NCBI GenBank assembly: GCA_036394195.1
Contig: DASWFO010000062.1
Location: 18,514 to 82,513 of the forward strand
From: Alphaproteobacteria bacterium
GTDB taxonomy: Bacteria; Pseudomonadota; Alphaproteobacteria; CACIAM-22H2
Length of the DNA stretch: 64,000 nucleotides
Direction: 5' to 3'
In this document: positions 13,041 through 43,588 of the stretch, one piece after another
Numbering within the stretch: position 1 is the stretch's first letter
How the letters are laid out: every line of letters begins with the position of its first letter
The notes under the pieces: model-generated
Told to the model about the DNA's origin: nothing
Database searches by the model: none
What the model saw: the letters and a program-made list of their open reading frames with translations, nothing else
Made by a program: the position numbers and the translations under genes

Positions 13041-13156
13041 AGGGCTCCTTGACACGCCGAGGGTGGCGCGCGCGGACTTTAATTGCCTGCGGTTCTTATT
13101 GCAAAGCGGTGGCAGACGGCAAAGCGGTGATGTTGCCGACCGCCGACGGTCGAGGA

Positions 13157-13567
13157 TCAGCGCCGCAGCCCGCGCTGCCGGCAGGCCTCGGCGAGCGCCT
13201 TCTGCTCGGTATCGCCGATCGGCTGGCCGTTGAAATAGACCCGCTGGCCCTGGTCCGCGATGGTGATCTGGCCGACGCCCACGGCCGGCAGCAGCAGCCG
13301 GGAGTCGTTCCGAACCCCGTACTTCCGCAGGTCGGCGTAGACGTCGAAGACGTAGGTCTGCGGCATCTGGACCTGGGGCGGGGTCAGGTCGGCCGGTGCG
13401 ACCGCCCGGCCGTAGACGTCCACCCCGGGGGTGTAGGTCACGTCCGGCGCCGGGTTGTGGGCGACCAGCTGGCGGCAGTCCTGCTCGCTGATGGCGACCT
13501 GCTGGGCGGCCGCCGGGGCTGCGCCCGGAAACGCCAAAAGGACCATGGCGGCGACGATCTTCCGCAT
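13157..13567 (-). CDS. Exported hypothetical protein (~136 aa)
   Basis: It has a signal peptide [23 protein letters not shown]. There is no recognisable family. Confidence 0.5.
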
Positions 13568-13684
13568 ATCCAAGTATAGCTCTATTTCAAAAACGCGGCG
13601 TTCTGGGGTGTTATATTTGTTTTATACGCATACGAATGAAATAAGTTTCGTGACAGCACGTTTGCGGATGGCTATAGTTTTCTT

Positions 13685-13779
13685 CCCTAAGGAACAACGC
13701 CAAGCAAACGCTGGCACGGACCAAGTTTAGGGAGCTGCGTCTCAAGTCCGGATCGGAAACGATCCGGACTTGTTTCGTT
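13685..13779 (+). ncRNA. Candidate small RNA (~95 nt), delimited by a sigma70-like promoter and an intrinsic terminator in an AT-rich intergenic island
   Basis: The -35 is GTGACA (13650-13655). A 17-bp spacer follows, then the -10 TATAGT (13673-13678). A 5' stem pairs ccctaa (13685-90) with ttaggg (13725-30). A 12-bp GC-rich hairpin with a GAAA tetraloop (13744-13771) is followed by gTTTcgTT. No ORF is present, and the region is markedly AT-rich versus the genome. Confidence 0.35.
13744..13779 (+). terminator. Rho-independent terminator (aagtccggatcg-GAAA-cgatccggactt + T-tract)
   Basis: It is a perfect 12-bp stem with a GNRA loop and a downstream T-rich tract on the plus strand only. Confidence 0.55.
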
Positions 13780-13827
13780 AAGGGCCCCCGCAAGTCCTTG
13801 GAATCGCCTATTTTTTAGGCAACCAGG

Positions 13828-14391
13828 TCAATAGCGGAACCCCTTGGCCGCAAGCCAGGGCGGCTTCAGGCGGGCGATTTTCCGCTGCACCGCGCAGTCC
13901 GCCCGGTGCGCGCCGGGCAGATAGCCGATGCTCATCAGGAACTCGCCGACGATCTCACCGCCGGTGAACTTGAAGGTCTGGCCGAAGAGCTTCACCCAGT
14001 CGGCCTTGCGGCGCGGATGATGGGCCGCGATCCAAGCGGCGAACGAGCCGTGGCTGTCGGCGAGGGCGCGGATGCGCCGCGCGTTCTCGATCGCGGCGGC
14101 GACCTTCAGCCGGTTGCGAACGATGCCGGCGTCGGCGAGCAGGCGGGCCTCGTCCCGGGCCGTGAAGCGCGCCACCTTCGCCACGTCGAAGTTCCGGAAC
14201 GCCTTCCGGAAGGCGTCGCGCTTCTGCAGCATCAACAGCCACGACAGGCCGGCCTGGTTGATCTCCAGCACCAGCCGCTCGAACAGCTGATTGTCATCGT
14301 CCAGCGGAAAGCCGTATTCGGCGTCGTGATACGGCCCGTGGACCGGATGACCCGGTGCGATGTCGCAATAGGTCGAAGCCGCCCCACCCAT
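13828..14391 (-). CDS. tag: DNA-3-methyladenine glycosylase I
   Basis: The 187-aa ORF carries the Tag family signature (..ERLVLEINQAGLSW..), including the Zn-binding Cys/His pattern. Confidence 0.85.
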   Translation of the reverse strand: MGGAASTYCDIAPGHPVHGPYHDAEYGFPLDDDNQLFERLVLEINQAGLSWLLMLQKRDAFRKAFRNFDVAKVARFTARDEARLLADAGIVRNRLKVAAAIENARRIRALADSHGSFAAWIAAHHPRRKADWVKLFGQTFKFTGGEIVGEFLMSIGYLPGAHRADCAVQRKIARLKPPWLAAKGFRY

Positions 14392-33714: not shown

Positions 33715-33791
<77 letters not shown>

Positions 33792-36392: not shown

Positions 36393-36467
36393 TGGTGGGC
36401 GGTGAGGGTTTCGAACCCCCGACCCTCTCGGTGTAAACGAGATGCTCTACCGCTGAGCTAACCGCCC
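36393..36467 (-). tRNA. tRNA-Val (TAC)
   Basis: Reverse complement: GGGCGGTTAGCTCAGCGGTAGAGCATCTCGTTTACACCGAGAGGGTCGGGGGTTCGAAACCCTCACCGCCCACCA. The anticodon loop is TTTACAC. Confidence 0.85.
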
Positions 36468-43503: not shown

Positions 43504-43588
43504 TGGTGCGGGCGGAGGGACTTGAACCCACACGACTTTCGTCACCAGAACCTAAATCTGGCGTGTCTACCAGTTCCACCACGCCCGC
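43504..43588 (-). tRNA. tRNA-Leu (TAG)
   Basis: Reverse complement: GCGGGCGTGGTGGAACTGGTAGACACGCCAGATTTAGGTTCTGGTGACGAAAGTCGTGTGGGTTCAAGTCCCTCCGCCCGCACCA. It has the long variable arm. Confidence 0.85.

Follow-up and report, generated by a model that had tools for sequence, protein, structure and literature searches.

Described trans-encoded small RNAs (sRNAs) of Alphaproteobacteria include the alpha-r families of Rhizobiales and CcsR and SorY/SorX of Rhodobacter. The locus presented here, a putative sRNA gene at 13649–13781 on the plus strand of a 64-kb stretch of DNA (the window, that is, the whole stretch analysed), shares their general organization: a stand-alone intergenic gene of about 100 nt that combines a Rho-independent terminator and a promoter resembling CTTGAC-N17-CTATAT with a 5′ domain and a conserved unpaired stretch, and that is conserved within one clade and in a fixed neighbourhood. 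However, it displays no sequence or model similarity to these sRNAs at threshold, and its conserved CCAAGUUUAGGGAGCUGCGUC is G-rich and resembles a Shine-Dalgarno (SD) sequence, unlike the C/U-rich anti-SD motif that is typical of AbcR/CcsR-like RNAs. The window belongs to a contig of a metagenome-assembled genome (MAG) deposited as 'Alphaproteobacteria bacterium' (locus tag VGB82_). The locus very probably is a genuine non-coding RNA gene, independently transcribed from the plus strand. Taken as a whole, it is best explained, with somewhat more confidence than doubt, as a complete gene for an sRNA of about 97 nt that most likely acts in trans by base-pairing via a strongly conserved core.

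Relatives of this locus were reached via homologues of Tag and of a small secreted protein, which are encoded by the two flanking genes, together with contig look-ups, one scan of genome contigs and one metagenome scan with the exact 20-mer CCAAGTTTAGGGAGCTGCGT. The window, 13 other distinct full-length homologues (L002/L013, L003, L004/L005, L006, L007, L009, L010/L014, L011, L012, L015, L016, L019 and L020/L021) and two more distant candidates (L022 and L018) make up a set of 16 sequences. The neighbourhood shared by the relatives comprises RNase J, a glyoxalase-family gene, DUF1467, tag, the RNA, the small secreted protein and proS. All the relatives are environmental contigs, the only named cultured species being that of the weak candidate L018 (Azospirillum sp. 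sgz302134), and the RNA gene is conserved in a clade of uncultured soil Alphaproteobacteria. A covariance model, R1, scores 12 sequences at 74–121 bits, L020 at 102.5 bits and L019 at 56.6 bits; its match in the window spans 13679–13785. No trace of the RNA was found in L001, a distant locus from the genome-contig scan whose small protein is 40% identical, and L017, from a Rhodospirillales MAG, gave no match either. No paralogue occurs in the window or in any retrieved locus, and distant blastn against the plasmid collection gave no match.

Transcription would initiate near 13685 from a housekeeping-type promoter (sigma70 or alphaproteobacterial CTTGAC-N17-CTATAT-like) preceded by a conserved box. 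The −35 element, C-GTGACA (13649–13655, plus strand), is separated by 17 nt from the −10 element, TATAGT (13673–13678, plus strand). This GTGACA-17-TATAGT arrangement (13650–13678) is the sole promoter-like site between 12500 and 15000, where shuffled sequences gave a mean of 0.3, and it is the only 10/12 match to sigma70 on either strand of the 64-kb window. GTGAC is invariant in 15 of the 16 loci, and the same number of loci, including those with different neighbours, keep the whole pattern, that is, GTGACN, 16–18 nt and TAnnnT. The −10 hexamer reads TATAGT in most relatives and TATATT, TATACT, TACTCT or TAATCT in the others. The initial annotation had singled out this promoter as the best sigma70-like match of the window and had named conservation of its hexamers in relatives as a check; both points are borne out by these data. 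The box tttgttttatacgcatacgaatg (13616–13638, plus strand; TTCGT[GA][TC]GC[CG]TAT[AC]A in the relatives) lies some 10–15 nt before the −35 element; it could represent a regulator site or an UP-like element. It is retained in the divergent loci L019 and L022 and also where an inserted permease gene has displaced the small-protein gene. Sigma54, LexA, CtrA, OxyR and EcfG-type motifs were considered by eye for the promoter and the box, and none fits.

The predicted RNA (13685–13781, about 97 nt as deduced from the sequence) would consist of four parts: a variable A-rich leader, a first stem-loop (SL1), a core of 26 nt and a second stem-loop (SL2) that serves as a terminator. The leader (13685–13698, with a start placed at about 13684–13686 from the position of the −10 element) is only 29–55% identical to that of the window among the homologues, which have kept nothing but its A-richness and a loose AA(A/G)C motif. 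SL1 (13699–13715), a short GC-rich hairpin that reads GCCaAGC-AAAC-GCUGGC, lies directly upstream of the core in 16 of 16 sequences. The core itself, ACGGACCAAGUUUAGGGAGCUGCGUC (13716–13741), is a candidate seed or protein-binding site that includes a GGAG/AGGGA motif. It can be written ACGG[A/G]CCAAGUUUAGGGAGCUGCGUC, since the 12 aligned sequences are identical except at position 5 (A or G); the core of L020 is identical too, and that of the window occurs as a single copy in the 64 kb. SL2 (13743–13772) has a 13-bp stem, of which eight pairs are G-C, and a GAAA loop that varies from 4 to 8 nt in the relatives. It is followed by the U-rich tail UUUCGUUAA (13773–13781), which would form the 3′ end near 13781 and which reads UUGCGUUUU, UUCGUUUU or UGUGUUUU in the relatives. 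Hairpin and tail thus span 13743–13781, and all these parts lie on the plus strand.

Both hairpins show compensatory changes. In the 12-sequence, model-based alignment A5 from which covariation was counted, 94.7% of the cells form standard pairs and compensatory double changes affect 7 of the 19 pairs. None of 500 shuffles reached the observed pairing values, and pairing fell to 14–47% when the 3′ partners were slid by 1–3 columns. Compensatory changes concern three of the six pairs of SL1, for which eight different stems are found over the 16 loci (GCCaAGC/GCUGGC, GCaCGGC/GCCGGC, UCGGC/GCCGA, GCGGC/GCCGC, GGCGGU/GCCGCC, GCCGG/CUGGC, GGCGA/UCGCC and CCGCGC/GCGCGG). For SL2, 98.1% of the cells are paired and 4 of the 13 pairs have changed on both sides. 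U-A is replaced by C-G and G-C by A-U in the SL2 of L006, L015 and L019. The alignment includes eight G.U or U.G cells, six of them in SL2, versus two A.C or C.A cells, and none of the three unpaired cells of SL2 is A.C (cells read by eye from the A5 rows). As the G.U cells would be mismatches on the opposite strand and as the U-rich tail is found only on the plus strand, the plus strand is indicated as the transcribed one. The predicted fold of a 99-nt segment reaches −45.1 kcal/mol (z = −5.9) on the plus strand and −41.4 kcal/mol (z = −4.9) on the minus strand. Taken together, these figures favour a structured RNA read from the plus strand over an element conserved purely as DNA.

From the 3′ arm of SL1 to SL2, 9 of the 11 relatives compared are 81–97% identical to the window, and the two most distant ones are 67–75% identical. 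By comparison, the third codon positions of tag, which is carried by 10 of these 11 relatives, are 60–71% identical to those of the window, and the adjacent small protein is 45–80% identical. Since the SL1–SL2 stretch is better conserved than both, the predicted RNA sequence is under purifying selection of its own.

The gene also appears independent from its neighbours. It occupies a spacer of 254 bp (13574–13827) between two minus-strand genes, one encoding a secreted hypothetical protein of 136/138 amino acids without any Pfam match (13157–13567/13573) and the other, tag, encoding a DNA-3-methyladenine glycosylase I (13828–14391; PF03352). The GC content drops to 0.40 at 13550–13700, versus 0.60–0.75 in the surroundings. 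In L007, L015, L016, L019 and L022, the RNA and the small-protein gene are kept apart by a xanthine/uracil-permease gene of about 1.3 kb, and in L015, L016 and L019 a gene encoding a major facilitator superfamily (MFS) transporter lies between the RNA and tag. Each of these loci retains the whole unit of box, promoter, RNA and terminator. Because the unit remains intact despite the insertions, it is neither just the 3′ end of tag nor just an operator of the small-protein gene. A role limited to that of a terminator or 3′ untranslated region of tag was rejected on two grounds: the minus strand reads GAGACGCAGC after the hairpin, without any U-tract, and linkage to tag is broken in the three loci that harbour the MFS gene. 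A cis-regulatory leader or a riboswitch was rejected as well, the next downstream gene always converging on the RNA, so that none is available for regulation on the same strand.

No open reading frame (ORF) on either strand is conserved in frame or extent among the homologues, and the indels observed in the leader and in the SL2 loop are not multiples of three; the locus is thus considered as non-coding. Two minus-strand ORFs overlap it, one of 60 codons starting with TTG (13611–13793) and one of 31 codons (13622–13717), and neither is conserved in frame. Several statements of the initial annotation stand: an AT-rich spacer of about 250 bp lies between minus-strand genes, no ORF of at least 30 codons fits inside 13640–13830, and the spacer holds a plus-strand non-coding sRNA gene with a promoter and a terminator of its own, in agreement with the promoter found in 15 of 16 loci, the covariation of both hairpins, the asymmetry between G.U and A.C cells and the intactness of the unit. 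The possibility that it had raised against itself, namely that the region is merely the 3′ untranslated region or terminator of a minus-strand gene, is contradicted by the loci in which tag is not the convergent neighbour.

The internal structure that it had proposed fared less well. A ccctaa...ttaggg stem was said to close a structured 5′ domain; this stem belongs to the minimum-free-energy fold of the window and is found in L003, but only 52.8% of the cells pair across the homologues, no better than in slid controls, and it was rejected as a feature of the family. The near-constant stretch 13716–13741 is precisely what had been taken for the 3′ arm of this stem and its flanks. The single-stranded seed proposed at that time, aggaacaacgcc, falls in the variable leader, which holds its 'aggaac' stretch, and in the 5′ arm of SL1 (g13699–c13705); the conserved candidate seed is CCAAGUUUAGGGAG. 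As for the terminator, which had been called textbook, the hairpin is indeed a good one, with 13 pairs and a GAAA loop, but the tail that follows reads TTTCGTTAAG and the label was generous for an interrupted T-tract. The single-sequence reading thus identified the gene correctly but erred on both seed and fold. A looser helix is conceivable, between uAA[A/G]C (uAAaC) of the leader and GUUUA of the core: 75% of its cells pair, versus at most 62% in slid controls, and the unvarying core allows one-sided changes only. In the RNAalifold prediction, the core forms a small hairpin whose loop contains AGG; as this hairpin is invariant, it has no covariation support.

Comparison with Rfam 15 at gathering thresholds, carried out on the whole window, gave no small-RNA family match for the spacer, and permissive E-value scans of the spacer and six homologue loci gave only sub-threshold matches to SorY and ar35. 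SorY (RF02651), also a two-hairpin sRNA, is the only match of the spacer at E ≤ 10; with 12.8 bits versus a gathering threshold of 111, an E value of 4.9 and a location on the minus strand, it was dismissed as noise. The best Rfam score was that of ar35 (RF02346), with a correctly placed and correctly oriented match in two homologues, L009 and L021 (23.6 and 23.9 bits versus a threshold of 45), and nowhere in the window at E ≤ 10. Both RNAs display a long GC-rich hairpin containing CCGG as a terminator, with UUnnnUU after it. However, the alignment is carried by this terminator hairpin, promoter DNA is pulled into the first helix of the model, and the ar35 model has no counterpart of the SL1-plus-core signature; this assignment was rejected too. 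The core sequence is absent from the searchable full-text literature. The putative RNA is previously uncatalogued and is a member of no Rfam 15 family.

Whereas the gene structure emerges from comparative sequence analysis, the mode of action is one that we infer. The core, minimally CCAAGUUUAGGGA, would act as a seed that pairs with one or more messenger RNAs (mRNAs) encoded elsewhere in the genome, and handles for a chaperone of the Hfq type would be provided by the leader, rich in A, and by the 3′ hairpin and U-rich tail. We give action by base-pairing through the core an even chance. Several points weigh against the picture of a complete, base-pairing sRNA. The start site, the 3′ end and transcription itself are all predictions from sequence, and an interruption breaks the U-tract (UUUCGUU in the window). 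The covariation figures derive from a model-fitted alignment of only about 7–8 lineages, so that they are supportive and do not amount to statistical proof. Furthermore, the predicted accessibility of the core differs by lineage, the leader being predicted to pair with GUUUAGGG in several of them, including the window. No target stood out in the 64-kb window: a duplex-energy scan of both strands gave best non-self values of −37 to −31 kcal/mol, versus minima of −39 to −32 for shuffled seeds, and the gene itself is the only exact or near reverse complement of the core in the window. No gene encoding Hfq, ProQ or CsrA was found in the window or the collected loci, which is uninformative either way. 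Lastly, a nearly unchanging stretch of 26 nt exceeds a typical seed and also fits a protein-binding site.

Binding of a protein or of the ribosome by a real RNA is the main rival explanation. In this scheme, UUUAGGGAG, with its A(N)GGA/GGAG motif, would mimic an SD sequence or a CsrA-type site; the partner that it titrates would be a CsrA-like regulator, an RNA-binding protein of another kind or the anti-SD sequence of the 30S subunit. We regard this scheme as unlikely, even if it accounts for a core that is constant but for one base and longer than most seeds, for the persistence of AGGGA in the most divergent loci (UUAGGGAGGAA in L018 and UUUAGGGAAGAA in L022), for the small hairpin that exposes AGG in the RNAalifold prediction and for the second (A/G)(A/G)GGAA motif found in the leader or in an extra hairpin of the window, L019, L018 and L022. 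A likeness to CsrB/RsmY-type RNAs does exist, as the core carries AGGGA, an A(N)GGA motif of which a part is predicted to lie in a small loop; however, a single GGA motif is conserved family-wide, whereas CsrB/RsmY-type RNAs and the known CsrA/RsmA sponges have many. Assignment to the CsrA/RsmA-sequestering sRNAs, recognized by several GGA motifs in hairpin loops, was rejected on the same count, one AGGGA being conserved and a second GGA-containing motif being restricted to the four loci just cited. The core hairpin never varies and thus lacks covariation support, and in the main family the SD-like motif is not followed by any start codon at a usable distance. Nothing points to a CsrA homologue in these organisms: no csrA gene was found in the DNA compared, an uninformative absence, and most Alphaproteobacteria are not known to possess CsrA. 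The narrower proposal that the RNA does not base-pair at all, and that UUUAGGGAG beside SL1 is a decoy for the 30S anti-SD sequence, a CsrA-like protein or another translational regulator, appears more doubtful still. If true, it would reveal a new, minimal class of protein- or ribosome-titrating RNAs with a single site, in a lineage that is not known for such systems.

An RNA acting only in cis, as an antisense RNA or as a transcription-interference or terminator module directed at the 3′ end of tag or another convergent gene, and having no target in trans, is improbable. It would be in keeping with the constant convergence of the RNA on a minus-strand gene whose stop codon is near (at a distance from the U-tail of 47 nt in the window and of about 6 nt in L015) and with the lack of a canonical minus-strand terminator between them, the convergent mRNA probably entering SL2 with full complementarity to the sRNA. 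A cis-antisense effect on the convergent mRNA may thus exist as a side effect, but it cannot account for the conserved core because the partner changes between loci, being mostly tag and the MFS gene in L015, L016 and L019, while the core is unchanged. In addition, no U-tract follows the hairpin on the minus strand, and a role restricted to termination would leave the conserved promoter, SL1 and the 26-nt core unexplained. Even less probable is conservation at the DNA level, in which the spacer would be a divergent promoter/operator of the small secreted-protein gene, made of transcription-factor sites, with incidental RNA features. A second, divergent promoter-like element does precede that gene (TATACT, 5 nt before its ATG), with the conserved box in between, and the closest relatives keep the AT-rich region right up to its start codon. 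However, the compensatory changes in two hairpins and the one-strand asymmetry of G.U cells are unexpected for protein-binding DNA, the unit is conserved even in loci where a permease gene of about 1.3 kb lies between it and the small-protein gene, and its best-conserved part lies 150–170 bp from the start of this gene. As for a small protein, encoded by the 60-codon minus-strand TTG ORF (13611–13793) or by a micro-ORF after the SD-like AGGGAG, it is effectively refuted. The minus-strand ORF (...DPDLRRSSLNLVRA...) is open in the window, L003, L002, L004 and L012, and L019 has an AUG 5 nt after GGGAG; but the frame, start or extent differ or are lost in L006, L007, L009–L011, L015, L016 and L019, the conserved stretch shows no wobble at third positions, indels are not multiples of three, and no start codon is found at a usable distance from AGGGAG in the main family. 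A trans-acting, base-pairing sRNA remains our preferred explanation for the whole locus.

The most divergent loci suggest how far this sRNA family extends. L019, whose Tag is 76% identical to that of the window, retains GGCACGGACCAAGUUUAGGGAG and then diverges (AUGCGAU), with a covarying SL2. L022 (5600–5790, minus strand; Tag 73% identical) scores only 10.8 bits with R1; nevertheless, inspection by eye reveals the box, GTGACA-17-TAATCT, an A-rich leader, SL1 and CGGUCCAAGUUUAGGGA. Its 3′ domain differs, with a strong terminator about 110 nt past the core (GGCAAGCC-UUCG-GGCUUGCC, then UUCUUUUUU), and its RNA would be about 165 nt long. L018 (2800–2900, minus strand; 13.9 bits with R1) has CGGCCCGAGGUUAGGGAGGAA after a GC hairpin and no recognizable promoter. 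It shares an extra GAGGGAAC hairpin with L022 and, judged via this intermediate, it probably is a distant relative, without this being proven. Since L022 and L018 keep the SL1 and core signature with a different and longer 3′ domain, the family seems to have a short form of about 97 nt and a long form of about 165 nt. The minimal signature that the candidate members share is SL1 followed by CGG-N-CC[AG]AG[GT]UUAGGGA, the latter being retained in the divergent L019, L022 and L018.

These data define a well-delimited sRNA family not represented in Rfam and supply for it a covariance model, a comparative set of 16 sequences and a candidate seed. They can be used for the annotation of MAGs in a clade of soil Alphaproteobacteria known only from metagenomes, and CGG-N-CCAAGUUUAGGGA provides a concrete query for target prediction and for the mapping of metatranscriptomes. 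They do not challenge any current concept: every bacterial lineage can be expected to have clade-specific sRNAs that combine a promoter, a seed and a terminator.

Some additional observations concern the surroundings of the RNA. Immediately after the U-tail, a G-rich run is found in the window (13779–13789) and in all 12 aligned homologues, where it reads UUUUAGGG(C/G)C, UUAAGGGCC or UUCUGGGC. This run is a repeat of the UUUAGGG found in the core and, in some lineages, is complementary to the first, C-rich bases after the −10 element (CCCUAGAA with UUCUAGGG in L003). Either the RNA extends a few bases past the U-tract, with its ends pairing, or the run is part of the convergent gene, at its 3′ end. 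Within the region 13764–13796, a third copy of CAAGTCC (13790–13796), downstream of the terminator, could pair with GGACTTG of the 3′ arm of SL2; this copy is probably fortuitous because it is specific to the window and absent in the relatives. The two short spacers that flank the RNA are sites of gene gain in some lineages, with the permease gene upstream on the same strand and the MFS gene downstream and converging.

Elsewhere, three transfer RNA genes (33718–33791, 36396–36467 and 43507–43588, all on the minus strand) are the sole Rfam matches at gathering thresholds in the 64-kb window. In L003, a sub-threshold match to the whalefall-1 RNA (RF01762; 28 bits versus a gathering threshold of 37, E = 0.0009) lies at 2108–2157, on the minus strand of that locus, which corresponds to the plus strand of the window. 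This match is located in the 266-nt spacer between the small-protein gene and proS, whose equivalent in the window is only about 100 nt long (13056–13156).

The small secreted-protein gene itself has a particular 5′ end. Its database entry begins at the ATG at 13567 (136 amino acids) and not at the TTG of the ORF list. In the region 13565–13585 (minus strand), a −10-like TATACT ends 5–6 nt before this ATG, and TATAAT, TATAGT or TATGAT occupies the same position in L002, L003, L004 and L009. The gene has no SD sequence, and the block TTTTTGAAATAGAGCTATA is kept among the closest relatives. This arrangement suggests that the mRNA of the small secreted protein is leaderless and transcribed divergently from the sRNA.

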